Shown here piece by piece: positions 1,599 through 13,712 of a stretch of DNA of 64,000 nt. The stretch is from Alphaproteobacteria bacterium. GTDB lineage: Bacteria > Pseudomonadota > Alphaproteobacteria > MPNO01. A program made the translations under genes and the position numbers. The notes beneath the pieces were generated by a model. The model was not told the DNA's origin, made no database searches, and saw nothing but the letters and a program-made list of their open reading frames with translations. The stretch covers positions 1,184,001 through 1,248,000 of the forward strand of contig CBDFLJ010000002.1 of the NCBI GenBank assembly GCA_965248835.1, given 5' to 3'. Positions within the stretch are counted from its first letter, which is position 1. The number at the start of each line of letters is the position of its first letter.

Positions 1599-2711
1599 TC
1601 AGAGGAAGTGGCCGCTCTTGCTGGCCTTGGTGGACAGGTAGAATGCGTTGTGGTCATTGGACGGGAAGGCGTGGGGGACACGCTCGGTGACCTCGATGCC
1701 GAAATGGGCAAGCCCGTCGACCTTGTCGGGATTGTTGGTCATCAGCCGGACCTTCGCAAACCCCAGCCGGCGCAGCATCTCCGCAGCCGGCAGAAAGATC
1801 CGCTCGTCGGCCTCGAAGCCCAGCCGCTCGTTGGCCTCGACGGTGTCGAAGCCCTGGTCCTGCAGCGCGTAGGCACGCAGCTTGTTGATCAGCCCTATGC
1901 CGCGGCCTTCCTGAGCGAGATAGAGCAGGATGCCGCTGCCGGCGGCAGAGATGTGCTCGATCGCCCCGCGGAGTTGCTGGCCGCAATCGCATTTGAGCGA
2001 GCCCAGCAGGTCGCCCGTGAAGCATTCCGAATGGAGCCTGGCGAGCACCGGGCCCGGCGGTGCGGGATCGCCGATCACGATGGCGAAATGCTCGATGCCG
2101 CCATCGCGCGGCCGAAAGGCGACGATTCGGGTCGCCTCCGCGCCTTCGAGCGGGACCCGCGCCGATGTCACGCGTTCCAGCGCGCAGGCCGCGGCGAGGT
2201 CATAGGCCATGATGTCCGCAGCGGTCAGCCGCAGAACCGACGTGCCGGGCGGTCCCAGCACCACGCCGAGATCATCGACGGAAACGGTAAGCACCGCCGG
2301 CAGCAGCCGGGCGATCTTTGCCAGCCGGACGGCGGCGAGGACCCCTTCGGGCACCGGATCGCGGCGTGCCTCGAACGGCCCGCGAAGCGGATGAGACAGG
2401 TCGGTTGCCGGATCGGCAAGGCTCGCCAGGGCTTCGACCGCAAGCCAGTCCGGCACCGGGATGCGCACCACGTCGGGGGTGTAGAGTCTGATCTTCAGTG
2501 TCACCGCCCTGTTGTGGGTGATCGCCAGATCGGGTTCGACGCCGGCCCAGGCGCGCAGGGCCGCCAGACGCTCGGCGGAGGCGAACTCGGCCGCGAACGC
2601 GATCACGCCCGGGACGCTGTCGGGATCGGCGATGACCACCGGCAGCCCGCGGCGCAGGTCGCCCGCGGCCCGGTCGACACCGGCCAGGGGTGAGACCGCA
2701 AACCCACTCAT
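1599..2711 (-). CDS. ribA: GTP cyclohydrolase II (alphaproteobacterial type with degenerate N-terminal domain)
   Basis: RLHSECFTGDLLGSLKCDCGQQL, QEGRGIGLINKLRAYALQD, LMTNNPDK and YL.TK..KSGH motifs. ATG at 2711. Confidence 0.93.
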   Translation of the reverse strand: MSGFAVSPLAGVDRAAGDLRRGLPVVIADPDSVPGVIAFAAEFASAERLAALRAWAGVEPDLAITHNRAVTLKIRLYTPDVVRIPVPDWLAVEALASLADPATDLSHPLRGPFEARRDPVPEGVLAAVRLAKIARLLPAVLTVSVDDLGVVLGPPGTSVLRLTAADIMAYDLAAACALERVTSARVPLEGAEATRIVAFRPRDGGIEHFAIVIGDPAPPGPVLARLHSECFTGDLLGSLKCDCGQQLRGAIEHISAAGSGILLYLAQEGRGIGLINKLRAYALQDQGFDTVEANERLGFEADERIFLPAAEMLRRLGFAKVRLMTNNPDKVDGLAHFGIEVTERVPHAFPSNDHNAFYLSTKASKSGHFL

Positions 2712-2812
2712 AGACCCTAAATACGCCGCCCAGGGCGATCGGGCAAACACCGGGCCGGCCCCTTGCCGCCCGGCTGGCGCTGTGCGAGGTTGAGGATGCG
2801 ATCGCAAGGAAC

Positions 2813-3838
2813 GTGGTGGTCATGGAAGCCTGGGAAGTCAAAGACTTGGCGAAGTCTTTCGGCGCTGATCTGGTCGGTATCGCCAGCGCGGAGGTGCTCA
2901 ACGCCTTCCCCCCCGATCCGCTGTTTCCCCAGACCCCGGAACGCATCTCGCCGCACGCAAAGTCGGTCATCGTCATTGTCCAGCGCATCCCGGTCGGCGC
3001 CTTCCGCTGCAAGACCAACGTGCCGGTCCAATACATCAACATGCTGGTGCTGCGCCGCATGGACAAGATCGCCTACCGCGTGGTCGAGGCCCTGGAGCGT
3101 GCCGGTTACCCGAGCTTCGTGACCGCGGCCCAGGAGACCGATTGGTCCTACAAGCGCGCCTCCTACGGCCGGCTCAGCACCCGGCACCTGGGAATCGAGG
3201 CGGGGCTGGGCACGTTCGGGCTGGAGGTGAACATTCTGACGCCGGAGTTCGGCCCGCGGATCTATCTGACCGGCGTCCTGAGCGAATGTGTGCTGGAGCC
3301 CGACCGGCCGATGACGGAGCAGGTCTGCATCGGTGAAAGCTGCAGCCGCTGCCTTTATTCCTGCCCGACCGATGCGGTACGCCATTTCGGCATCGACAAG
3401 CGGGCGTGTTCCATCGAGGCGCAGGAGTTTGGTTTCTCCACCATCCTCAAGTTCTGGGAGCATTTCATCGCATCGGACGGAGCGACCAGGCGCCGGCTGA
3501 TCAGCGACCGCGAGATCTTCGGGTTCTGGCAGGGGCTGTTGCGGGTGGTCGGTTCGTTCGGCGACTGCCCGCGCTGTCTTGCCGTCTGTCCGGTGGGCAA
3601 CGACTACCATGCCCATCTGGCCGACCTGCAGAAGGTGATCCCCGAAAAGACGCCCGAGAAGGTCGACAAGGCGCGCGGTTTCAAGGATGCACGCAAGGCT
3701 GGCGCCGATATCGACGGGCTCAACGACTGGAACGTTCGCTGGGTTGGTCCCGAAGGCTACAAGGGGATCGTCGCCCGCCAGCTCCAGGCCTTCAAGGCAG
3801 AGCAGCGCGCACGTGAAAAAGACGCACTTGAGGATTGA
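2813..3838 (+). CDS. Reductive dehalogenase/epoxyqueuosine reductase-fold 4Fe-4S dicluster protein (paralog A)
   Basis: K..AK..GADLVGI and AGLGTFG...LTPEFGPR motifs; CIGESCSRCLYSCP, a lone Cys (DKRAC) and CPRCLAVCP give 8 motif Cys. No Tat signal. Confidence 0.8.
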   Translation: MVVMEAWEVKDLAKSFGADLVGIASAEVLNAFPPDPLFPQTPERISPHAKSVIVIVQRIPVGAFRCKTNVPVQYINMLVLRRMDKIAYRVVEALERAGYPSFVTAAQETDWSYKRASYGRLSTRHLGIEAGLGTFGLEVNILTPEFGPRIYLTGVLSECVLEPDRPMTEQVCIGESCSRCLYSCPTDAVRHFGIDKRACSIEAQEFGFSTILKFWEHFIASDGATRRRLISDREIFGFWQGLLRVVGSFGDCPRCLAVCPVGNDYHAHLADLQKVIPEKTPEKVDKARGFKDARKAGADIDGLNDWNVRWVGPEGYKGIVARQLQAFKAEQRAREKDALED

Positions 3839-3841
3839 GCG

Positions 3842-4852
3842 ATGGTTGCTGCCTACAAGACACCGCTCGATGCCGCGGCGATCAAGCAAAAGGCCAAGGC
3901 GCTCGGCGCCGATCTCGTCGGCATCGCCGACGGCGCGGTGATGGACGCCCATCCGCCCGACCCGCGCAATCCGCAACGGCCCAGCGACATCACCGAGCAC
4001 GATGGCGGACGGGTGATCGTGCTGGCCAAACGCTATACCGCCGGCACCACGCGAATCGCCCGGTGGGACGAGCGCCACAAATATTACAACGACGAGATCA
4101 CGCTCACGAGGCTGGAAGAGACCGCGCTGGAACTCGTCTTCTGGCTCGAGGACCATGGCTATCCGGCGATTATCATCCCGCCGACCCATGTCGACCCTTG
4201 GCGCTACCGCGGCGACCCGGGCCAGCACATGACCACGGTTCTCTCGCTCACCCACGCCGCTGTCGAGGCAGGCCTGGGCACGCTCGGGCTCAACCTCCAG
4301 CTCCTCACGCCCGAATTCGGGCCGCGGGTAATCCTGACCGCGGTCCTGTGCAGCCTCCCGTGCGAAACCGATCCCCGGATCACCGAGACCCTGTGCAAGG
4401 GCCCCGAATGCGGCCGTTGCCTGTCAGCCTGTCCGGGCGATGTGGTCGGGCATTGGGACCGGGACTGGCCGGCCTGCGACCGGTTCCGCTCTCCGCACGG
4501 CTTTGCTCAGTTGGTCGACCATCTGGGCGAGATCCTCGAAGCGCCGGACGAGGCCGCCCAGCTCGATCTGATCCGGTCGGAGACCAGCTTCAACCTCTGG
4601 CAGTCCATCCTGCGCGGCGCCGGGGTGATCACCGGCTGCCGGCGCTGCCAGGACGTCTGCCCGGTGGGCGAGGACTATGAAGCGATGCTGGACGATGCGC
4701 TGGAGCAGATCCCCGAGGCCAGCGCCGAGAAGTCCACCCGCCTGGCCGAGATGAACGTCGCCGAAGAAGCCGGCGGTTTACCGGAGAGTTACCGGGCGCA
4801 GGAGCGCTGGATCGGATCGCTCGGTTATCGACGGGATGCCGGCGGCGCATGA
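3842..4852 (+). CDS. Reductive dehalogenase/epoxyqueuosine reductase-fold 4Fe-4S dicluster protein (paralog B)
   Basis: KAKALGADLVGI, AAVEAGLGTLG..LLTPEFGPRV, CKGPECGRCLSACP, WPAC and CRRCQDVCP motifs. Separated from paralog A stop by 3 nt. Confidence 0.8.
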   Translation: MVAAYKTPLDAAAIKQKAKALGADLVGIADGAVMDAHPPDPRNPQRPSDITEHDGGRVIVLAKRYTAGTTRIARWDERHKYYNDEITLTRLEETALELVFWLEDHGYPAIIIPPTHVDPWRYRGDPGQHMTTVLSLTHAAVEAGLGTLGLNLQLLTPEFGPRVILTAVLCSLPCETDPRITETLCKGPECGRCLSACPGDVVGHWDRDWPACDRFRSPHGFAQLVDHLGEILEAPDEAAQLDLIRSETSFNLWQSILRGAGVITGCRRCQDVCPVGEDYEAMLDDALEQIPEASAEKSTRLAEMNVAEEAGGLPESYRAQERWIGSLGYRRDAGGA

Positions 4853-6204
4853 GCGCGATCGAGGACCTCGCCCGGGTCCATCGAAGGGCCCATTACGCGG
4901 ACCTGCCGCTGTGCATCCCGGAAAGCGCCGCGCAGGTCGCAGCGATCCAGAGCGCGCGCAAACGCGTCGCCGTGGAGCGGGCGCGGCGGTCGACATTCTG
5001 GCGGCCGCGGCTGCAACACATCGCGCTCGACAGGCTGGACGATCCCGAGGAGTGGGCGCGGATTCCGATCCTCGACAAGGACCAGCTCCGCGCGATGACG
5101 CCGGAGGCCTTCTACGCCGATTTCTGCACCGCCGGAGAAACACCGATCTGCGAGTATTGGCGCTCCGGCGGCAGTACCGGCCGGCCGCTGTTCTACCCCA
5201 AGACCTACGAGGACATGCTCTACAACATGATCGGCTTCACCCGGACGTTTGCCTGTGCCGGGATCGGGGCGGTGCCGGGATCGAGCGAGCGGGTGCACCT
5301 GTCGATGCCGCTGGGCATCCACCCCGCCGGCCATGTGTGGGCGCGGGCGGCCGAGATCATGGGCATGGCCGTGGTGTGGGGCGGATCGGGCGCATCGCTG
5401 CCCTCGACCCAGCAACTCGAGCTCATCGAGATGCTGTCGCCCACGGTGTGGATGGGGATGTCGAGCTACGGCCTGCATCTGGCGAACCTCGCCAACACGA
5501 GGGGCGGCGACCTTGCAGGCAGTTCGGTCAAGACCATCATGTGCACCGCCGAGCCGTGTTCGGCGGCCAAGCGTGAGAAGCTGGAACGCGACTGGGGGGC
5601 CAAGGTCTTCGACTGCTTCGGCATGACCGAGGTCAGCATGCTTGGCGCCGAGGGGCCTTCACGGGAGGCTTTCCGGGTCTGGTCGGATCTGGCGTTCTTC
5701 GAGGTGCTCGATCCGGAGACACGCAAGCCGGTCGCCGATGGTACACCCGGTCGACTGGTCGTGACCGCGCTGTTCGGCAACGAAGGGGCACCGTTCCTGC
5801 GCTGGGATTCCGGCGATATCGTGATCATGAACCCGACGGTGAGCGACGACGGCCCGTTCTCGGTCTTCCCGTTGCTGCGCCACGCCCACCGGACCGCCGG
5901 GTTCTTCAAGGTGCGCGGGGTTAACGTCAATCACCAGGAGTTCGAGGACTTCGTGTTCGACAACGCGGCGATCAACGACTTCAAGGCCGAGCTAGTCAGC
6001 GACACGACCGGGCTCGACCTGATGCGGGTCTCGATCGAGGTCCGCTGCGGCGTCGACGCGGAAACCGAGCGCCGCGATGTCGAGCGCCGCACCAAGGCGT
6101 TGTTCGAGGTTTCCCCGGAGGTGGTCGTGCTGGAGACCGGCACCCTCGCCGCGGAGTTTGAAGCCAGCGTCAAGGCGCCGCGGTTCGTCGACCGGCGTGC
6201 ATAG
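4849..6204 (+). CDS. Phenylacetate-CoA ligase (PaaK)/F390 synthetase-like adenylate-forming enzyme
   Basis: IPILDKDQLR, RSGGSTGRP P-loop, TAEP, DCFGMTE, LRWDSGD and KVRGVNV motifs. ATGA overlap with upstream gene. Confidence 0.82.
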   Translation: MSAIEDLARVHRRAHYADLPLCIPESAAQVAAIQSARKRVAVERARRSTFWRPRLQHIALDRLDDPEEWARIPILDKDQLRAMTPEAFYADFCTAGETPICEYWRSGGSTGRPLFYPKTYEDMLYNMIGFTRTFACAGIGAVPGSSERVHLSMPLGIHPAGHVWARAAEIMGMAVVWGGSGASLPSTQQLELIEMLSPTVWMGMSSYGLHLANLANTRGGDLAGSSVKTIMCTAEPCSAAKREKLERDWGAKVFDCFGMTEVSMLGAEGPSREAFRVWSDLAFFEVLDPETRKPVADGTPGRLVVTALFGNEGAPFLRWDSGDIVIMNPTVSDDGPFSVFPLLRHAHRTAGFFKVRGVNVNHQEFEDFVFDNAAINDFKAELVSDTTGLDLMRVSIEVRCGVDAETERRDVERRTKALFEVSPEVVVLETGTLAAEFEASVKAPRFVDRRA

Positions 6205-6377
6205 GCCGGGACGGTTGGTCCTCCTGGCGAGTCGCCGAACCGGATTTCGTCATTGGTGATTCGCTTCTCCGGCGCGTTCGACGACCGCGCCGATATCGGC
6301 GGTTATCTCATAACATTCTGATATATATGGATTTATTTTCTGGCCGGATCAAAAAGCCGGCGAATCGCGGGCGCCGG

Positions 6378-6427
6378 AAAAACGCGTTTTTATGGTTAAC
6401 AAACCTTTTACATATAAGGATTATATG
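6378..6427. promoter_or_regulatory. AT-rich regulatory region with CtrA-like box and palindromes
   Basis: AAAAACGCGTTTTT palindrome (6378-6391); TTAA-N7-TTTAC (6396-6411) overlapping TTAACCAT on the minus strand; CATATAA-GGA-TTATATG inverted repeat (6411-6427). Confidence 0.5.
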
Positions 6428-6442
6428 GCTTGGATTTACGGT

Positions 6443-6570
6443 TTCTCCCTTCCGTGAATCCTCTGCGCCACAGGGGGGGAGTTTGGTTGTCCTACCAATG
6501 CCTCCCTGTGACCCCTCTGTGACTTGCGGGGCCATAACGGCCGGCGCCGGCTTTGGCTCCGCATCTTTTT
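6443..6570 (+). ncRNA. Putative small regulatory RNA (MmgR/suhB-like CCUCCCU...GACUU core plus terminator)
   Basis: Hairpins at 6445-6481 and 6483-6498, a single-stranded anti-SD CCTCCCT (6501-6507), GACTT, then a terminator stem 6525-6563 and TCTTTTT. Lies between convergent genes. The 5' end is an estimate. Confidence 0.55.
6525..6570 (+). terminator. Rho-independent terminator
   Basis: TGCGGGGCCA pairs with TGGCTCCGCA (10 bp, one G-U) and is followed by TCTTTTT. Confidence 0.7.
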
Positions 6571-6609
6571 ACCCCAATTCGAACGCGAAAAACAGCCGCC
6601 TGTTGCCGC

Positions 6610-7938
6610 TCAGCCATAGAGCGCGGCACAAATCACCACCGCGCCGGCGATCCCGGCGAGATCGGCGGTCAACCCGACCGCCAGCGCATGACGGATGCGG
6701 CGGATCTGCACCGCGCCGAAATAGACCGCGAGCACATAGAACGTCGTCTCTGTCGAGCCCTGCAGCGTGCTGACGACGTATCCGGCATAGCTGTCCGGCC
6801 CGATCGCAGGATCGTTGATGATCGCGGCGAGCACCCCGTAGGCGCCCGAGCCCGACAGCGGCCGCAGCAGCGCCATCGGCAGCGCTTCGGCCGGCAAGCC
6901 GACCAGCGACGTCACCGGCGATAGGACCGCGATCAAGCCGTCCAGCGCGCCGCTGGAGCGGAACATGCCGACCGCGACCAGGATCGCGACCAGATAGGGG
7001 ATGATCCGGACCGCGACCTGAAATCCGTCCCGCGCGCCGTCGACGAAGACCTCGTAGATACGCACGCGCTTGGCCACGCCGAAACCGAGGAGCGTGACGG
7101 CCAGTCCCGGGATGATCCAGGGCGAGATATGGGTGCCGAACATGATGGTGAGCGGCACCAGCGCGGCAATGAAACCCAGCGCCAGAACCGATACCCAGGC
7201 CGGATAGGCCTCGCCCGCCGCCTCGGCGGCCTCGGGATCGAACGGCGCAAGGTCTGTGGCGGGCTCCTCGGTGGTCTCGGCCCGGCTCCCGGCCTCACGC
7301 CGCACCCGCTCCGCGATCGCCGCCGGGGAGGCGGCAAACCGGCCATAGAGCTTTGCCGCCACGATCGCGGTGGTGGTCGAGCATATGGTCGCGAACAACG
7401 TCGTCGGCAGGATCCCGGCCGGATCGCCGGAGCCTGCGGCCGCGCGCAGCGCGATGACGCCGGTGGGCAACAGCGTCACCGAGGAGGTGTTGATTGCCAG
7501 GAACAGCACCATCGCATCGCTCGCGGTGCCTTTGTGGGGGTTGAGCCGGTCGAGCTCCTGCATCGCACGGATCCCGAACGGCGTTGCCGCGTTGCCGAGC
7601 CCGAGCGCGTTGGCCGACATGTTGAGGATCATCGCGCCCATTGCCGGGTGGTCGTGCGGGATGCCTGGGAACAGGCGGACCATCAGCGGCCGGATGGTCT
7701 TGGCGATGATGCTAAGCAGCCCGCCGGCCTCGGCGACCTTCATCAGGCCGAGGAAGAACGCCATCACCCCGATCAGCCCGATGGCGAGGGTGACGGCGCT
7801 GCCGGCGGTCTCGACCATGCCGAGCGCCAGGGTCTCCATCGGACCGACCGGCTCGAGGCCGGCCGGGACCCAGACGATCTGCCGCCACGCCGCCGTCCCG
7901 AACGCGATCAGAACGAGCGCGAAGAAGACCGCGTTCAT
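6610..7938 (-). CDS. Fused SpmA/SpmB-family (nucleoside recognition Gate domain) membrane protein
   Basis: ANALGLGNAATPFGIRAM and LAINTSSV (SpmA half); LRPLSGSG and GSTETTFYVLAVYFGAV (SpmB half). Confidence 0.88.
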   Translation of the reverse strand: MNAVFFALVLIAFGTAAWRQIVWVPAGLEPVGPMETLALGMVETAGSAVTLAIGLIGVMAFFLGLMKVAEAGGLLSIIAKTIRPLMVRLFPGIPHDHPAMGAMILNMSANALGLGNAATPFGIRAMQELDRLNPHKGTASDAMVLFLAINTSSVTLLPTGVIALRAAAGSGDPAGILPTTLFATICSTTTAIVAAKLYGRFAASPAAIAERVRREAGSRAETTEEPATDLAPFDPEAAEAAGEAYPAWVSVLALGFIAALVPLTIMFGTHISPWIIPGLAVTLLGFGVAKRVRIYEVFVDGARDGFQVAVRIIPYLVAILVAVGMFRSSGALDGLIAVLSPVTSLVGLPAEALPMALLRPLSGSGAYGVLAAIINDPAIGPDSYAGYVVSTLQGSTETTFYVLAVYFGAVQIRRIRHALAVGLTADLAGIAGAVVICAALYG

Positions 7939-7963
7939 CTGGCGACGGGCGCGCGGCGGGGGC

Positions 7964-8392
7964 TTAGATGCCGGCGCTCAGCCCCGCCGCCTCGATGCCG
8001 GCAACCGCGGCGACCTCGTCATTGTCGGAGGTATCGCCGCTGACGCCGACCGCGCCGATGATTTCCTCGCCGTCCTTGATCAGGACGCCTCCCGGCACCG
8101 GCACCAGGCGTCCCTGGGCGACATCGGACAGGGCGCCGATGAAATGCGGGCGTTCTGCGGCCATGGCGCCCAGCGCGCGCGAAGACCGTCCCATGCCGAC
8201 CGCGCCGAAAGCTTTGCCCGTAGCGATGTGTGGGCGAAGCGCCGCGCCCGGCCCGTCTTCGCGCTTGAAGGCCTTGAGGTGTCCGCCGTCATCGACCACC
8301 GAGACGGTCAGCGGATTCATGCCCTTGTCGTGGCCGGTCTCGATCGCGACATCGACGATCGTCGCCGCCTGCGCCAGTGTGAGATTCGCCAT
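7964..8392 (-). CDS. GlcG/HbpS family heme-binding protein
   Basis: VSVVDDGGHL..F.R.DG, IA.GKA, GGVLI and IGAVGVSG.TSD.DE..A..G motifs. AAGGAG RBS before ATG 8392. Confidence 0.88.
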   Translation of the reverse strand: MANLTLAQAATIVDVAIETGHDKGMNPLTVSVVDDGGHLKAFKREDGPGAALRPHIATGKAFGAVGMGRSSRALGAMAAERPHFIGALSDVAQGRLVPVPGGVLIKDGEEIIGAVGVSGDTSDNDEVAAVAGIEAAGLSAGI

Positions 8393-8505
8393 TGCGCTGT
8401 CTCCTTGTCCGATGGAATGGTGCCGCACCGTAGTCGCAGGCCCTGACCAAAGAAAGCTTGAAGTGCCCCGGCACGCCCGTGATAGGGTCCGACGAGGAGG
8501 CGCCG

Positions 8506-9387
8506 ATGGTCATGCGAAAACGTCGTTGCGGGTCCTTCGAGATCCAGGCGGTCGAGGAGTGGTCGGGCCTCTATCGCGACCCGCTGGAAATGTATCCCGA
8601 TGCGACGCCCGAGATCGTCGACCGACACCGCGATTGGCTGGTCCCCGAGGCGTTGGACGCCGAGTCGGGCCTGATGATCTTCGCCTTTCAGAGCTACCTT
8701 TTGCGGACCGGCCGCTACACGATCCTCATCGATTCCTGCGTCGGCGAGGACAAGGAGCGCCCCGACCGGCCGAACTGGCACCGTAAGAAATGGCCGTGGC
8801 TCGACAACCTCAAGGCCGCCGGCGTTGCCCCCGAGGAGGTCGATTTCGTGATGTGCACCCATCTGCACGTCGATCACGTGGGCTGGAACACCAAGCTCGT
8901 GGACGGGCGTTGGGTGCCGACCTTCCCCAACGCCGCCTATCTGTTCGGGGAGACCGAGTACCGCCACTGGGAGGCCGAGTCCAAGAACCTCGACTTCATG
9001 CGCGAGGTCTTCGCCGACAGCGTCCTGCCGATCATGGAAGCGGGCAAGGCCACTCTGATCGGCGCCGATTTCGAGATCGACGCGGGGCTGACGATCGAGC
9101 CGACTCCCGGGCACACGCCGGGCCATATCTGCCTCAACGTGAACTCGCAGGGCCAGCAAGCGGTGTTCGCCGGCGATCTGATGCACCACCCGCTCCAGGT
9201 GCCCGAGCCGCAGCTCTCCAGCATCTTCTGCAGCGACGCCGAGCAGTCGCGCATCACGCGCAAGGCCTTCGTCGAGCGCTATACCGACAGCGATACGGTC
9301 ATCCTGCCGGCCCATTTCCCCGGGCGCTCGGCCGGGCGCATCAGGGACCAGCGCGGAACGACGCGGTTCGTCTTCTGCGATGACTGA
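8506..9387 (+). CDS. Metallo-beta-lactamase fold hydrolase (lactonase-like)
   Basis: THLHVDHVGWN, PTPGHTPGH, GDLMHHP and PAHF motifs. GAGGAG RBS. Confidence 0.9.
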   Translation: MVMRKRRCGSFEIQAVEEWSGLYRDPLEMYPDATPEIVDRHRDWLVPEALDAESGLMIFAFQSYLLRTGRYTILIDSCVGEDKERPDRPNWHRKKWPWLDNLKAAGVAPEEVDFVMCTHLHVDHVGWNTKLVDGRWVPTFPNAAYLFGETEYRHWEAESKNLDFMREVFADSVLPIMEAGKATLIGADFEIDAGLTIEPTPGHTPGHICLNVNSQGQQAVFAGDLMHHPLQVPEPQLSSIFCSDAEQSRITRKAFVERYTDSDTVILPAHFPGRSAGRIRDQRGTTRFVFCDD

Positions 9388-10192
9388 GGCGCTTGGCGTC
9401 GGCATCGCGGGTCTGGGCGCGGTCGGCTGGCCGGTTGCCCGCGCCCTGGCGAACGGTCTGGACGGGCTCAGGCTCGCCGCGGTGTCCAGCCGCGATCTGG
9501 CCCGTGCGCGCGAACGCATGGCCGACATCGCGCCCGATGCCCCGGTGGTCCCTGCCGCCGCCCTGCCGGAACATGCCGACGTCGTCGTCGAATGCGTACC
9601 CAAGGCCGCCTTCGCCGAGGTCGCCGAGCCTGTGGTCGCGGCCGGCAAGATGCTGGTCACCGTCAGCGGGGCCGCACTCCTGGTCCATCCCGACATCGTC
9701 GACCGCGCCCGGCAGACCGGCGCGCGGATCGTGCTTGCGACCGGTGCGCTGCTCGGCCTCGATGCCGTCCGGGCAGCCGCGGAGGGCGAGATCCACGAGG
9801 TGCGGATGATCACCCGCAAGCCGCCCAGATCGCTCATCGGCGCGCCGCACCTGGAGCGGAACGGGATCTCGATCGACGGCCTTTCCGGGCCGCTCAAGGT
9901 CTTCGAAGGCTCCGCCCGTGAGGGTGCGGCGGGCTTCCCGGCCAATGTCAACGTCGCCGCGGCCCTGGGGCTTGCGGGTATCGGACCCGACCGCACGCGG
10001 CTCGAGATCTGGGCCGATCCGGCACTGGAGCGGAACACCCACGAGATCATCGTCGAAGCGGACAGCGCGCGCCTGACCATGAAGATCGAGAACGTGCCCT
10101 CGGACGAGAACCCGGGCACCGGCCGGATCACCGCCCTCAGCGTCATCGCCGCGCTGCGCGGGCTCGGCGCCCCGCTCAAGGTGGGGAGCTGA
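9380..10192 (+). CDS. nadX: L-aspartate dehydrogenase family protein
   Basis: GLGAVG Rossmann motif; VVVEC, TGALLGLD, TRKPP, F.GSAREGA..FPANVNVAAAL and ENP.T..ITALS motifs. Confidence 0.8.
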   Translation: MTEALGVGIAGLGAVGWPVARALANGLDGLRLAAVSSRDLARARERMADIAPDAPVVPAAALPEHADVVVECVPKAAFAEVAEPVVAAGKMLVTVSGAALLVHPDIVDRARQTGARIVLATGALLGLDAVRAAAEGEIHEVRMITRKPPRSLIGAPHLERNGISIDGLSGPLKVFEGSAREGAAGFPANVNVAAALGLAGIGPDRTRLEIWADPALERNTHEIIVEADSARLTMKIENVPSDENPGTGRITALSVIAALRGLGAPLKVGS

Positions 10193-10239
10193 GGCGTCCG
10201 TCGAGCTTTGCCAAGCTCATGATCAGGGAGAACGAGGCC

Positions 10240-11148
10240 ATGGAATACCAGGCACTCAAGTGGGAAGTGCGCGACAACCCCAAGCGTCCGGGCGAGCGCT
10301 GCATCGGCGTGATCACGCTGAACCGGCCGGAGGCGCTGAACGCCGTCGACGTGCGGATGCGGGTCGAACTCGACATCCTGTGCGACCAGATCAGCCACAA
10401 CAACCATCTCAAGGTGATCGTCCTGACGGGCGAGGGCAGGGGCTTCTCGGCCGGCGGCGACCTGAAGTCCGAAGCCGACCCGCTGGGCGCCGGATCGGAC
10501 CCCGCGTTCGACATGGGCAATTTCGGGCCCTACAAGGAGCTCGCTCACCTGTTCTTCAACGACCTGCGTCACCAGGTCCTGCAGCGCGCCTTCCGCAAGC
10601 TGGAGGATCTGCCTCAGATCACGATCGCGGCGATCAACGGGCCGGCGGTCGGCATCGGGCTGGAGATCACCACCCTGTGCGACCTGCGGATCGCCTCGGA
10701 CCGGGCGAGGCTCGGCGAGGTCGCGGTGCCGGCAGGCTTCCTTCCCGAATCCGGCGGCGCGCGCAACCTTCCCAAGCTCATCGGCATCGGCAAAGCGCTG
10801 GAGCTGATCCTCACCGGGCGGATCATCGAGGCCGAGGAGGCCGAGCGCATCGGACTGGTCGAGCGCGTGGTTCCCCATGAAGACCTGCTCGACGAAGTGA
10901 TGACGCTCGCCGGTCGGATTTCCTCCAACCCGTATCTGTCGGTCCGCTACGCCAAGGAACTGGTGAAAATGTACTGGAACGCCAACCGCAGCCAGGAAGG
11001 CTGGGACCGCGAGTTCGCAGCGATCCAGGAAATCACCCGGACCGGCGACTGCCGCGAGGGGATGCGCGCCTTCATGGCCAAGCGCCCGCCGGAATACCGC
11101 GGTCCTTACTACGAAGCCTGGCCGTTCGGGAACGGCGCCGGTGACTGA
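10240..11148 (+). CDS. Enoyl-CoA hydratase/isomerase (crotonase) family protein
   Basis: ITLNRPEALNA, GFSAGGDL, AAINGPAVGIG and GFLPESGG motifs. Alternative start 10219. Confidence 0.9.
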   Translation: MEYQALKWEVRDNPKRPGERCIGVITLNRPEALNAVDVRMRVELDILCDQISHNNHLKVIVLTGEGRGFSAGGDLKSEADPLGAGSDPAFDMGNFGPYKELAHLFFNDLRHQVLQRAFRKLEDLPQITIAAINGPAVGIGLEITTLCDLRIASDRARLGEVAVPAGFLPESGGARNLPKLIGIGKALELILTGRIIEAEEAERIGLVERVVPHEDLLDEVMTLAGRISSNPYLSVRYAKELVKMYWNANRSQEGWDREFAAIQEITRTGDCREGMRAFMAKRPPEYRGPYYEAWPFGNGAGD

Positions 11149-12694
11149 CCGGCCGTCGATCCCGGCGCGCTTGAACCTTTGCGGCGCGGTTCTGGACGAT
11201 ATTGTGCGCGGCGGGCACGGCGAACGAACCGCCTTCGTCTGGGAGGGCGGGTCGATCACCTGCTGGGCGCTCCTGGATCGGGTGAAGCGGCTTGCCGGCG
11301 GGCTCGCCGCGCACGGGATCGTTCGCGGAATGCCCGTTCTGGTGCGCATGCCCAACTGCATCGAATTCGTGCTCACCTTTCTGGCACTAACCCGGCTGGG
11401 CGCGATCCCTGTGCTGCAGAATTCGCTGCTCGGGACGGAGGAGGTCGACTATGTCCTCGAGCATAGCCAGACCAGAGCGGCGGTTTCGCTGGCAGCGATC
11501 GCCGATCCGCTGTTGCGCCGCGCCGAGACGATCGATGTCCTGATCTGGCGCGGAACACGTCCCGGCGCAACCTCCTTGGAGACGATGGCGCAAGGTGGTC
11601 CCGCGGTGCTCGCGCCCGCCGATACCGCGGCCGACGAACCTGCCTTCATGGTCTACACCTCGGGCACCACGGGCCGGCCCAAGGGGATCGTCCACGCCCA
11701 TCGATGGGTCCACGCGCTCGGCGAGGCCAACCGCTGTCGGGTACCGCCGGAGCCCGGAGACGTCGCGCTTGCGACCGGCGAGTGGAGCTTCATCAGCGCG
11801 CTCGGCCATAACGTGGTGTTTGCGCTGCGCAACGGCGTAACCGGCGCGATCCTCGAGGGGCGGGCGCAGCCCGAAAGGGTGCTGGCAGCGATCGAGGCGT
11901 TCAAGGTCACGCTGCTCTATTCGGTAGCCACGGTCTACCGCCGCGTGCTTGCCATCGCCGGGGTCGAGAACCGTTATGACCTGTCGAGCCTGAGGGGTTG
12001 CAGCGCCACCGGCGAAGCCCTCGAGGCCGCGACCTGGGAGGAGTTCAAGCGGCGCATCGGCTGCGAGATCTGGGAGCATTACGGTGTCTCCGAGATGCAG
12101 ATGGTGCTGGGCCAGGGTCCGCGGCACCCGGTCCGCCCGGGATCGATCGGCATTCCTCTGCCCGGCACTCCGGTCGCGGTCTGCGACGAGGATTACCGCG
12201 AACTGCCCGCCGGCGAGATCGGCCGGTTCCTGATCGGCGCCGACAACCCGGGCTTCTTCCTCGGCTACCATCGAGACGAGGCGTTGACCCGGCAGGTGAT
12301 CCATGACGGCTGGTACCATACCGGCGACCTCGCCTGGCGCGACGACGACGGCTATTACTGGATCGCCGGGCGCGAGGACGATTGCTTCAAGAGCCGCGGC
12401 ATCTTCATCTCGCCCTACGAGATCGAGGACGCGCTCCGCCGGCATGCAGGCGTCGCCGAGGCCTGCGTGGTGCCGAGCCCCGATCGGGAAATTGGCAACC
12501 GGATCCGCGCGGTCGTCGTGCTGCGCGGTAAGCACGCGGGCTCCGACGGGCTGGGCGATCGGATCCGCACCAGCCTGCGCGGCAGAATCGCGCCGTTCAA
12601 GATCCCGCATATCGTTGAAGTCGTCGACGCCCTGCCGATGAGCCCGGTCGGAAAGGTGCTGCGCCGAAAGGTCGCCGAAGGCGATAGCTCATAG
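11141..12694 (+). CDS. Acyl/aryl-CoA ligase (benzoate-CoA ligase-like)
   Basis: YTSGTTGRPKG, HYGVSE, WYHTGD, GREDD and LP.S..GK..R motifs. GTG start overlaps upstream stop. Confidence 0.88.
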   Translation: MTDRPSIPARLNLCGAVLDDIVRGGHGERTAFVWEGGSITCWALLDRVKRLAGGLAAHGIVRGMPVLVRMPNCIEFVLTFLALTRLGAIPVLQNSLLGTEEVDYVLEHSQTRAAVSLAAIADPLLRRAETIDVLIWRGTRPGATSLETMAQGGPAVLAPADTAADEPAFMVYTSGTTGRPKGIVHAHRWVHALGEANRCRVPPEPGDVALATGEWSFISALGHNVVFALRNGVTGAILEGRAQPERVLAAIEAFKVTLLYSVATVYRRVLAIAGVENRYDLSSLRGCSATGEALEAATWEEFKRRIGCEIWEHYGVSEMQMVLGQGPRHPVRPGSIGIPLPGTPVAVCDEDYRELPAGEIGRFLIGADNPGFFLGYHRDEALTRQVIHDGWYHTGDLAWRDDDGYYWIAGREDDCFKSRGIFISPYEIEDALRRHAGVAEACVVPSPDREIGNRIRAVVVLRGKHAGSDGLGDRIRTSLRGRIAPFKIPHIVEVVDALPMSPVGKVLRRKVAEGDSS

Positions 12695-12740
12695 GAGGCG
12701 GCTGCGTGTTCGGCCGCCGGGCGTCCATAGGTGCCCGGGA

Positions 12741-13712
12741 TCAGCGGACCGGGTCGTCGAAAGGCGAGTCGAACACGCCGAGATCGCCCAGCGCGTCCTC
12801 GGCGAAGCGGCGGGACAGGATCTCGTCGTGGCCCACCGCGCGGGTTTTCGGGTTAAGCGCCTTGAACCCGTCGAGCTGGGCCTGCCAATGGCCGGACGTC
12901 ATCTCGCCGTTGACGGCAAACCCGCCATTGTCCCGCTCCTGGCGCCAGATCGCGGCGACGGCGTCGTCGGGGATCGCGATGGTTACGTTGTTGCGGAAGA
13001 CGGTCTCGAAGGTCTCGAAGTCGTCGTGCAGCGCGCGCGAGGCCCGAATCATGCCGCGGGCCAGCCTGGCCAACGCCTCCGGGTTGTCTCGCTCATAGTC
13101 CTCGGTCGTCGACAGCACGCCGTGCGGCTGGAGCGGAACCAGCCGTTTGAGGTCGGCGAACCCGAGCAGGTTGGAAAGCTTGTCGCCGTGGTTCGCGGCC
13201 AGCGAGATCGCCTCTTCGACGCGGATCAGCGAGACGTCGATCGTGCCCGCGAGCAGCGCCTGGATGCGTTCGGGCGGCGGACCGAGGGCACGCCAGTCGA
13301 TTTCGTCTTCGCCGATGCCCAGCGCGGCCACGGTCAGCCGGGCCATGTGATGGCTGAGCGCGCCGAAGCCGTCGAGCGCCCAGGAGACGCCGCGGAGCTG
13401 GTCCGGGGCGGTGATCGATTTTCGGACGACCAGGTTCTGGGCCAGCCCGCGCGCCATCGAGACGACGATCCGGACCGGCGCCCCGTCGGCGCGCGCCGCG
13501 ATCGCCGGCCCCAGCCCGCCGTAGCAGGCATCGACCCGGCCGGCGAGCACCGACTCGATCGCCTGCACCCCGCCGTGGACCGGGATCCATGTCACATCGA
13601 GGCCCTGGTCCGCCCACAGCCCGAGGTCGGTCACGGCTGCACAGGCGAGGTCGTCGACCCCGAACGTCACACCGGAAGCCGCGGCAAGCCGCATCGCGAT
13701 TCGGTCGGTCAT
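12741..13712 (-). CDS. NMT1/THI5/SsuA-like substrate-binding-fold protein without evident signal peptide
   Basis: G...QGLDV, GGVQAIESVLAGRVD, L.G...A....G..SH and R..AL.AG.ID pattern. ATGA overlap with the MaoC gene. Confidence 0.72.
   Translation of the reverse strand: MTDRIAMRLAAASGVTFGVDDLACAAVTDLGLWADQGLDVTWIPVHGGVQAIESVLAGRVDACYGGLGPAIAARADGAPVRIVVSMARGLAQNLVVRKSITAPDQLRGVSWALDGFGALSHHMARLTVAALGIGEDEIDWRALGPPPERIQALLAGTIDVSLIRVEEAISLAANHGDKLSNLLGFADLKRLVPLQPHGVLSTTEDYERDNPEALARLARGMIRASRALHDDFETFETVFRNNVTIAIPDDAVAAIWRQERDNGGFAVNGEMTSGHWQAQLDGFKALNPKTRAVGHDEILSRRFAEDALGDLGVFDSPFDDPVR

Follow-up and report, generated by a model that had tools for sequence, protein, structure and literature searches.

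A scaffold in which a cobalamin-binding α/β domain is followed by a ferredoxin domain with two [4Fe-4S] clusters underlies both the reductive dehalogenases (RdhA, or RDH) and the epoxyqueuosine reductase QueG. To our knowledge, only two reaction types have been established for it: reductive dehalogenation by RdhA and the reduction of a tRNA epoxide by QueG. The catabolic dehalogenase NpRdhA (NpRdhA/BhbA type; structures 4ras, 6zxx, and 6zy1), a cytoplasmic enzyme of aerobic Alphaproteobacteria, acts on bromohydroxybenzoate. Here we analyze three adjacent genes in a 64,000-nucleotide stretch of an alphaproteobacterial genome (contig CBDFLJ010000002.1, positions 1,184,001 to 1,248,000; hereafter the window). 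They encode two paralogous proteins with this scaffold, A and B, and a PaaK-like adenylate-forming enzyme that is probably a coenzyme A (CoA) ligase.

QueG acts on tRNA, is cytoplasmic without a twin-arginine translocation (Tat) signal, and is reported to be a monomer (PMC5175355). The same source places Arg141 of the Bacillus subtilis enzyme beneath the corrin and proposes Asp134 as the catalytic acid, with His106 as a partner of this residue; the dehalogenase PceA has no arginine at that place, and the lower face is closed off there by the tail of the protein itself. NpRdhA comprises one chain of ~700 residues that includes a fused reductase module. Within this chain, a catalytic B12 domain is joined to a B12-like domain that is vestigial (PMC12219181).

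Our analysis places A and B in a branch of this superfamily that is separate from both QueG and RdhA. We propose that they form a heterodimer that reductively removes a substituent from an acyl-CoA made by the ligase, with the corrinoid held in A, a proposal that we consider probable, if not strongly so. If it is true, the chemistry of this scaffold would be extended by a third type, directed at thioester-activated acids, through a widespread and strongly conserved heterodimeric branch that is tied to CoA ligases and occurs in ordinary aerobic Alphaproteobacteria from soil, wastewater, sea water, and sponges. This branch could also supply the missing gene for aryl-CoA reductive substituent-removal steps that are known just as activities, and many 'QueG' and 'ferredoxin' annotations would be corrected. 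We found no description of the trio in searches of the openly accessible literature.

A branch separate from QueG and RdhA

The genome consists of two contigs (C1 and C2; estimated completeness 100, contamination 9.51). Gene A (2813-3838, + strand) is an open reading frame (ORF) of 341 aa, and B (3842-4852, +; 336 aa) follows it after a spacing of 3 nt (TGA GCG ATG). The ligase gene (4849-6204, +; 451 aa) overlaps the end of B at an ATGA junction, through which it is translationally coupled to B. The true start of A is probably the ATG at 2822, since an identical database protein is 338 aa long and homologues begin there. The two paralogues share 39% identity across 312 residues (E 4e-63), and both contain the motifs GADLVGI and AGLG..G...TPEFGPR, the cluster motif C-x4-C-x2-C-x3-CP, a lone Cys, and C-x2-C-x3-CP. 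In A, the second cluster motif is split by an insertion (C199 ... C252-x2-C255-x3-C259).

A preliminary description of this DNA, made from the sequence alone, had reported the three-gene layout with its gap and overlap as well as the motifs in both paralogues, and all of these are present. Its count of eight cysteines holds for those of the cluster motifs, which are invariant in an alignment of 32 sequences of the wider family (leaving out P0143 and P0165, which are apparently frameshifted), but each protein has 10 cysteines in total. Also as it stated, the N-termini of A and B carry no Tat leader, no RdhB-like gene lies beside the pair (the genes on either side being RibA-like and the ligase), and neither protein has a fused reductase domain, 341 and 336 aa being too short for an extra domain. 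No Rfam family matched at the gathering threshold in the entire window, and hence no cobalamin riboswitch lies ahead of the operon; a scan of 2500-6700 for promoters and terminators gave nothing exceeding the expectation from shuffled sequences. Four sequencing data sets are listed as containing this DNA, all of them from a single study and a single sample, and none is of RNA.

The scores of A and B against the established families are low. With the QueG model TIGR00276 they reach 45.1 and 39.9 bits, respectively, compared to a cut-off of 200, and with the RDH model TIGR02486 29.6 and 25.6 bits, compared to 160.35. In the Pfam scan, A gave sub-threshold ferredoxin matches only, B passed Fer4_10 alone (27.4 bits, cut-off 25.5), and PF13486 was reported for neither. 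Among solved structures, sequence comparison ranks QueG (5d08, E 4.6e-11 for A) and PceA (4uqu, 2.3e-7) highest.

The fold itself is recovered with both proteins. The AlphaFold2 (AF2) model of A (pLDDT 89.6, pTM 0.87) matches QueG 5d08_B with a VIA-align Z of 17.7 and a root-mean-square deviation (rmsd) of 3.3 over 210 aligned residues, and is tied with the catalytic domain of NpRdhA (6zxx_C, Z 17.5) and an RDH complex (8q4h_A, 17.3), PceA (16.9) lying less than one Z unit lower. The model of B (pLDDT 77.7) best matches QueG 5d0a_D (Z 16.6, rmsd 4.3, 219 aligned), and the list of structures is otherwise that found for A, at 16.3 and 15.4. Both proteins have the architecture of the superfamily, an α/β domain of the cobalamin-binding type and then a ferredoxin domain with two [4Fe-4S] motifs. 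CblC is a more distant fold relative of the QueG/RdhA superfamily, with MMACHC/CblC structures giving Z ~10 to A and B, and flavin nitroreductases share the fold at still lower Z (5 to 7).

A true QueG is encoded elsewhere in the same genome (C1:747318-748316, 438.7 bits), which answers the check for a separate queG that the preliminary description had suggested, and the genome also holds several further weak QueG/RDH-like paralogues. We built a quick maximum-likelihood tree of 55 rows, comprising 11 of the 25 A and 10 of the 26 B sequences, distant relatives, paralogues from the window's own genome, and the halves of fusion proteins. The tree separates the QueG of this genome and the RDH-type proteins (SH-aLRT 97) from A, B, a third type (C), and more distant relatives (D) (97); B forms a clade (support 99), and A and B come together (89). 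Because their scores lie far under the QueG and RDH cut-offs and because of this position in the tree, A and B are a separate third branch of the superfamily, neither QueG nor RdhA, and the earlier view that the pair lies outside both families proper is thus upheld.

Residues that mark QueG are missing as well. The column of its catalytic Asp134 holds Ser in 22 of the 25 A sequences and Met or Leu in 25 of the 26 B sequences, and the DYH region, which includes His106, aligns to a helix without D-Y-H in both HMMER and MAFFT alignments, in agreement with the absence of this signature noted earlier. Among databases, A has 1786 relatives at E ≤ 1e-3, the best 120 of which are all at least 78% identical and mostly unnamed or called 'ferredoxin' or 'QueG'. 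A search against 50%-identity representatives gave 1897 matches at E ≤ 1e-3, just 81 of them at E ≤ 1e-30 and many of these fragments; given how few matches reach the stricter level, the core A family appears to be narrow and strongly conserved.

A predicted heterodimer with unequal subunits

A model of the A+B complex scored 0.65, compared to 0.00 for the best of three controls. Of 157 solved complexes, 116 reach the mark applied to this score, as do 2 of 215 mismatched pairs; these counts hold only roughly here because we supplied our own alignments. At least 95% of the contacts agree between runs, the partner pLDDT is at least 90, and the predicted interface is asymmetric, with residues 60-82 and 223-246 of A set against residues 92-126 and 220-232 of B. 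The two types also occur within one chain: in two predicted fusions, P0121 (670 aa) and P0122 (678 aa), the N-terminal half is of the A type and the C-terminal half of the B type, distant tandem forms of 735-794 aa exist too, and a metagenome scan with P0121 found three loci. The complex model, these fusions, and the presence of B in every locus with room for it (see below) together lead us to predict that A and B form a cytoplasmic heterodimer, in contrast to the monomeric QueG. A heteromeric pair, which the preliminary description had raised as a possibility, is therefore what the complex model and the fusion proteins predict.

The two subunits differ at the corrin site. In both the HMMER alignment and a MAFFT alignment of 70 sequences, QueG Arg141 aligns to R124 of A, a column that holds Arg in 25 of 25 A sequences but a basic residue in 0 of 26 B sequences (T, S, A, N, G, E, D, or P instead). 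Elsewhere the column is R or K in 14 of 15 distant relatives, K in both of two C-type proteins (a third QueG-like type, described below), and K in the genome's own QueG. Similarly, the Y118 column is Tyr in 25 of 25 A and 0 of 26 B sequences, and the G119 column is Gly in 25 of 25 and 1 of 26. The Tyr-Gly loop and the basic residue are thus kept by A and most relatives and lost from B, in which all eight cluster cysteines are retained. Y151 of A, in the column of the active-site Arg305 of PceA, is Tyr in 25 of 25 A sequences and I, L, M, or V in 25 of 26 B sequences, a difference from RdhA; PceA Tyr246 could not be placed in the alignment.

Because B has lost the basic residue and the Tyr-Gly loop, A is probably the corrinoid-binding catalytic subunit and the sole holder of the corrinoid, and B is probably a cluster-bearing electron-entry or structural partner with a degenerate corrin site. 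The predicted division of labor would give one corrinoid and four clusters per dimer. The preliminary description had taken both paralogues to be B12 proteins, which suits A, with its retained corrin-site residues, but probably not B. This asymmetry is newly described here and is analogous to the pairing of a catalytic and a vestigial domain in NpRdhA, although A and B are two ~340-aa chains, each with two clusters, that lack a fused reductase, have an obligatory ligase partner, and score under the RDH cut-offs.

Coupling to CoA ligases and the proposed reaction

To describe the surroundings of the pair we used the best 80 of 130 relatives in a species-genome collection. By their record titles, nearly all of these loci come from metagenome-assembled genomes of Alphaproteobacteria, with four labeled just 'Pseudomonadota bacterium'. 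In 72 of them there is room for further genes, defined as at least 2.5 kb after A; B follows A in all 72 and the ligase is present in 71, the exception being L087. The ligase is thereby co-conserved with the pair, as the preliminary description had expected. In most loci conservation decreases in the order A, B, ligase, as in L025 with 81, 69, and 59%. Among an even sample of 401 alphaproteobacterial species genomes (including G000), the A/B pair occurs in 20, distributed over 16 of 308 genera and many families, and the carriers score 560-646 bits, bar one fragmented match (332.5 bits). A phylum-level sample of 380 other genomes gave no match at E ≤ 1e-40, which, being a sample, is not proof of absence.

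The ligase belongs to the AMP-binding family PF00501 (57.7 bits, gathering cut-off 29.9), with a sub-threshold match to PF14535. It shares the short adenylate-forming architecture of PaaK (TIGR02155; 4r1l, 2y4o, and 2y27), and its nearest solved relative is PaaK 4r1l (E 1.3e-24). However, it scores only 108.5 bits with TIGR02155 (cut-off 646.3) and 139.6 bits with its best NCBIfam model, haloarchaeal PaaK (NF041878; cut-off 700), and lies under every equivalog cut-off. Two paralogues in the same genome (C1:80184-81470 and C2:1993136-1994422), 48-50% identical to it, were considered as a lead to the substrate and rejected, neither of them adjoining QueG-like genes and their contexts being unrelated.

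The genome G261 (52% GC) has three A/B pairs (genes called by longest-ORF picking and tblastn). The first is a canonical A-B-PaaK-like ligase trio beside a LysR regulator, a LigB-type dioxygenase, a major facilitator superfamily (MFS) transporter, and an MR/MLE enzyme. In the second, a TetR gene is followed by A'-B'-acyl-CoA dehydrogenase (600 aa)-AMP-binding ligase (519 aa), and in the third by A''-B''-RDH-like protein (PF13486)-acyl-CoA dehydrogenase-AMP-binding ligase-thiamine pyrophosphate (TPP) enzyme. The ligase class is thus swapped in the paralogous operons while the link to a ligase is kept, an observation that is also new here. Since the ligase is replaced by one of another class and an acyl-CoA dehydrogenase joins the operon, the comparison argues for a CoA thioester as the putative substrate of A/B and backs the CoA-ester substrate that had been suggested earlier. 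The RDH-like protein of the third operon (L101 6862-8130, - strand) matches PF13486 with 31.7 bits, above the cut-off, and lies between the paralogous B and the acyl-CoA dehydrogenase, so that this operon holds three members of the superfamily.

The genomic context of cobalamin use can be followed in the 401-genome sample. CobS was found in 17 of the 20 carriers of the pair and in 161 of the 381 non-carriers (Fisher p 2.6e-4; here and below such values overstate the association, as related genomes are not independent), and the total of 178 of 401 includes the unpublished non-carrier genome G240, on which no claim rests. The genome that contains the window uses corrinoid, judging from the presence of MetH, QueG, and a cobalamin riboswitch, and probably imports it, since neither CobS nor CobN was found in it.

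In the reaction that we propose, a carboxylic acid, most likely aromatic, would be activated by the ligase to its CoA thioester. From ferredoxin or flavodoxin, low-potential electrons would travel by way of four [4Fe-4S] clusters, a pair in each subunit, from B to A, where a base-off corrinoid would be bound; B would hold none. Using two electrons, Co(I) or Co(II) would then remove a substituent of the acyl-CoA by reductive elimination. The group lost might be a halide, an epoxide oxygen, a hydroxyl, or an amino group, and the invariant A residues Y118, K114, and H125 are candidate proton donors. B, being without the corrin-site residues, would act as electron-entry and structural partner. The neighboring genes have an aromatic theme (BenE, Rieske dioxygenase, LigB dioxygenase, IorAB-like proteins, kynureninase, and AraC, MarR, and LysR regulators), which together with the kynureninase link makes aminobenzoyl-, hydroxybenzoyl-, or halobenzoyl-CoA attractive candidate substrates. 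No specific substrate can be claimed, because the neighbors differ by lineage and tblastn gave no kynureninase in the window's own genome.

More tentatively, and in our view less likely than not, A/B might represent a third catalytic class, a thioester-dependent aryl-CoA reductase of aerobes with one catalytic and one degenerate subunit that removes an amino, hydroxyl, halide, or epoxide oxygen substituent from the ring. One concrete possibility is a deaminating aminobenzoyl-CoA reductase, converting 2- or 4-aminobenzoyl-CoA to benzoyl-CoA, which would explain why a kynureninase gene directly follows the ligase gene in at least 9 of the 80 loci. The review PMC4539516 describes the reductive deamination of 2- and 4-aminobenzoyl-CoA as an activity and names no gene for it.

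A number of points weigh against a corrinoid-dependent A/B reductase acting on the ligase's product. Cobalamin binding by A/B is something that we infer from fold, motif, and co-occurrence, and the window's own genome, without CobS and CobN, would have to import the corrinoid. PceA also lacks the arginine, so its loss from the R124 column of B suggests but does not prove a loss of corrinoid. The confidence of the B model is only moderate (pLDDT 77.7), and the favorable complex score may partly reflect a resemblance to RdhA oligomers, if any of these (PceA is a homodimer in the crystal) were among the training structures. In two loci the pair stands alone: no ligase lies close by in L087, and none is present within 6.6 kb downstream on the metagenome contig L097. 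Nor does the gene order tell which enzyme works first, and the ligase might use what A/B produces instead of making the substrate. Beyond the trio, the neighbors vary by lineage, save for the transglutaminase-like protein described below, and do not amount to a single shared catabolic pathway.

Some of these points recur in the alternatives. If the ligase merely activates the product, A/B would be a catabolic dehalogenase or similar reductase of the free acid, much as NpRdhA acts on a substituted aromatic acid. The NpRdhA catalytic domain is indeed matched as well as QueG (Z 17.5 for A and 15.4 for B), true RDH-family genes lie near the trio in at least 9 of 80 loci (TIGR02486 201 bits), with one inside a paralogous operon, and gene order does not set the reaction order. 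We nevertheless think it rather unlikely, because both proteins lie far under the RDH cut-offs (30 and 26 vs 160 bits), the PceA Arg305 column is Tyr in A and aliphatic in B, and the ligase coupling (71/72) and the class swap with acyl-CoA dehydrogenase fit a CoA ester better. The respiratory RdhA enzymes (PceA 4uqu, 8q4h; TIGR02486, PF13486) share the fold, the motif, and the insertion-split second cluster motif, but A and B have neither their Tat leader nor their RdhB anchor. It is also unlikely, in our view, that A/B have lost cobalamin altogether and constitute an Fe-S-only reductase or electron-transfer module that reduces the acyl-adenylate or CoA ester by radical chemistry. Although this would accommodate the lack of CobS and CobN in the genome, the already degenerate corrin site of B, and a fold common to flavin nitroreductases, it is hard to square with the retention by A, in 25/25 orthologues, of AGLG...TPEFGPR and of a basic residue beneath the corrin, with the enrichment of CobS in carriers, and with a genome that itself uses cobalamin.

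A role in corrinoid processing or remodeling, by CblC-like trafficking or dealkylation and with a corrinoid or lower-ligand carboxylate as the substrate of the ligase, seems very unlikely. The QueG/RdhA matches are far stronger than those to MMACHC/CblC that would point this way (Z 17 vs 10); the pair is found in just 20 of 401 sampled Alphaproteobacteria compared to 178 of 401 for CobS; and the neighbors are catabolic (acyl-CoA dehydrogenase, enoyl-CoA hydratase, dioxygenases, BenE), even though the genome seems reliant on imported corrinoid and an HbpS/DUF336-like gene (7964-8428) lies nearby. Least probable of all, to the point of being hardly credible, is a divergent QueG that finishes queuosine in tRNA. 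Some databases label close homologues 'epoxyqueuosine reductase QueG', and QueG (TIGR00276; 5d08, 5d0a, 5t8y, and 5d6s) is both the best sequence match among solved structures and a true structural likeness: it shares the fold (Z 17.7 and 16.6), the AG(L/I)G...TPE(F/Y)G motif, the two [4Fe-4S] motifs, and the cytoplasmic location, and A keeps the basic residue of the Arg141 column. However, scores of 45 and 40 bits where the family requires 200, the true QueG in the same genome, the Ser (A) and Met/Leu (B) in the Asp134 column, the missing DYH, the position on the opposite side of the tree, the coupling to a CoA ligase, and the rarity of the pair all speak against it.

Neighboring genes and further observations

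The preliminary description regarded the trio as a self-contained unit. It is tightly packed and conserved, but two further proteins accompany it at the level of the genome and are adjacent to it in some lineages. The C-type QueG-like protein is found in 13 of the 20 carriers and 2 of the 381 non-carriers (Fisher p 9e-18), and a transglutaminase-like protein in 15 of 20 and 34 of 381 (p 2e-11); these co-occurrences, and that with CobS, are newly described here. In the window's own genome, the C-type gene (C2:2007346-2008254) lies 820 kb from the trio and shares 71% identity with the copy that adjoins the trio in L025. Its 303-aa product scores 26 bits to QueG, and it is followed after 3 nt by a gene for a 500-aa protein, apparently a degenerate member of the AMP-binding enzymes, with fragmentary AMP-binding matches only; a gene of the FAA hydrolase family comes next (C2:2007346-2010510, or L090 7347-10510). 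Here, for the second time in this genome, a QueG-like protein is paired with an adenylating enzyme. The transglutaminase-like gene (C2:1887529-1888437) stands beside HpaB-like, amidase, and UbiX-like genes; its product has no sequence match among solved structures, and Atlas clusters give generic names only.

Counts of neighbors in the 80 loci derive from clustered heuristic gene calls and are lower bounds, as the caller missed genes. Enoyl-CoA hydratase was found in at least 21 loci, the transglutaminase-like protein in at least 19, an AMP-binding ligase directly upstream in at least 18, and the C-type protein (~305 aa) in at least 10. A kynureninase gene immediately behind that of the ligase (TIGR01814, 308 bits), acyl-CoA dehydrogenase, and a true RDH-family gene ~6 kb upstream each occur in at least 9 loci, Rieske dioxygenase alpha/beta in at least 8, an AraC regulator in at least 7, and TauD in at least 6. 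IorA-like and IorB-like proteins occur in at least 5 and at least 4, respectively, and BenE and MarR each in at least 4. Kynureninase, and hence anthranilate, was considered as a universal source of the substrate and rejected, given its limited occurrence and its absence from the window's own genome by tblastn. In L087, a partial second B-like stretch (12704-13117), with 58% identity to B 191-327, lies ~2.7 kb past the complete B and may be a rearranged or decaying copy.

On the other side of A in the window, and divergent from it, is a gene for a stand-alone GTP cyclohydrolase II (1599-2807, - strand), RibA-like with an N-terminal extension of ~200 aa (PF00925, 204 bits; PRK08815, 277 bits, under its cut-off). 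Its listed TTG start leaves only 5 nt to A, so that translation probably begins within the frame, around residue 33. We set this gene aside as a functional partner and treat its presence as synteny, since tblastn finds it beside the trio in 27 of the 80 loci, at varying distance and in related lineages only. Downstream of the trio, a Gate-domain (nucleoside-recognition) membrane protein and the HbpS/DUF336-like protein are encoded at 6610-8428 (- strand; the latter at 7964-8428) and recur beside the trio in several loci. They are followed at 8458-12694 (+) by genes for a metallo-beta-lactamase-fold hydrolase, an aspartate-dehydrogenase-like protein, an enoyl-CoA hydratase, and a benzoate-CoA-ligase-family enzyme (291 bits, cut-off 375), a run that is mostly or entirely syntenic with the trio in L008, L015, and L040.

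Elsewhere in the genome, a 730-aa frame (C2:1062729-1064921, or L095 4730-6922) directly follows the gene for a molybdenum hydroxylase large subunit. Its C-terminal part is 55% identical to an RDH-family protein of L009 (TIGR02486 201 bits), and its N-terminal part weakly repeats the RDH N-terminus, so the frame could encode a tandem or fused cytoplasmic dehalogenase homologue. Finally, a single AMP-binding ligase query gave ~70 tblastn matches across both contigs, which indicates an unusually large set of acyl-CoA ligases.

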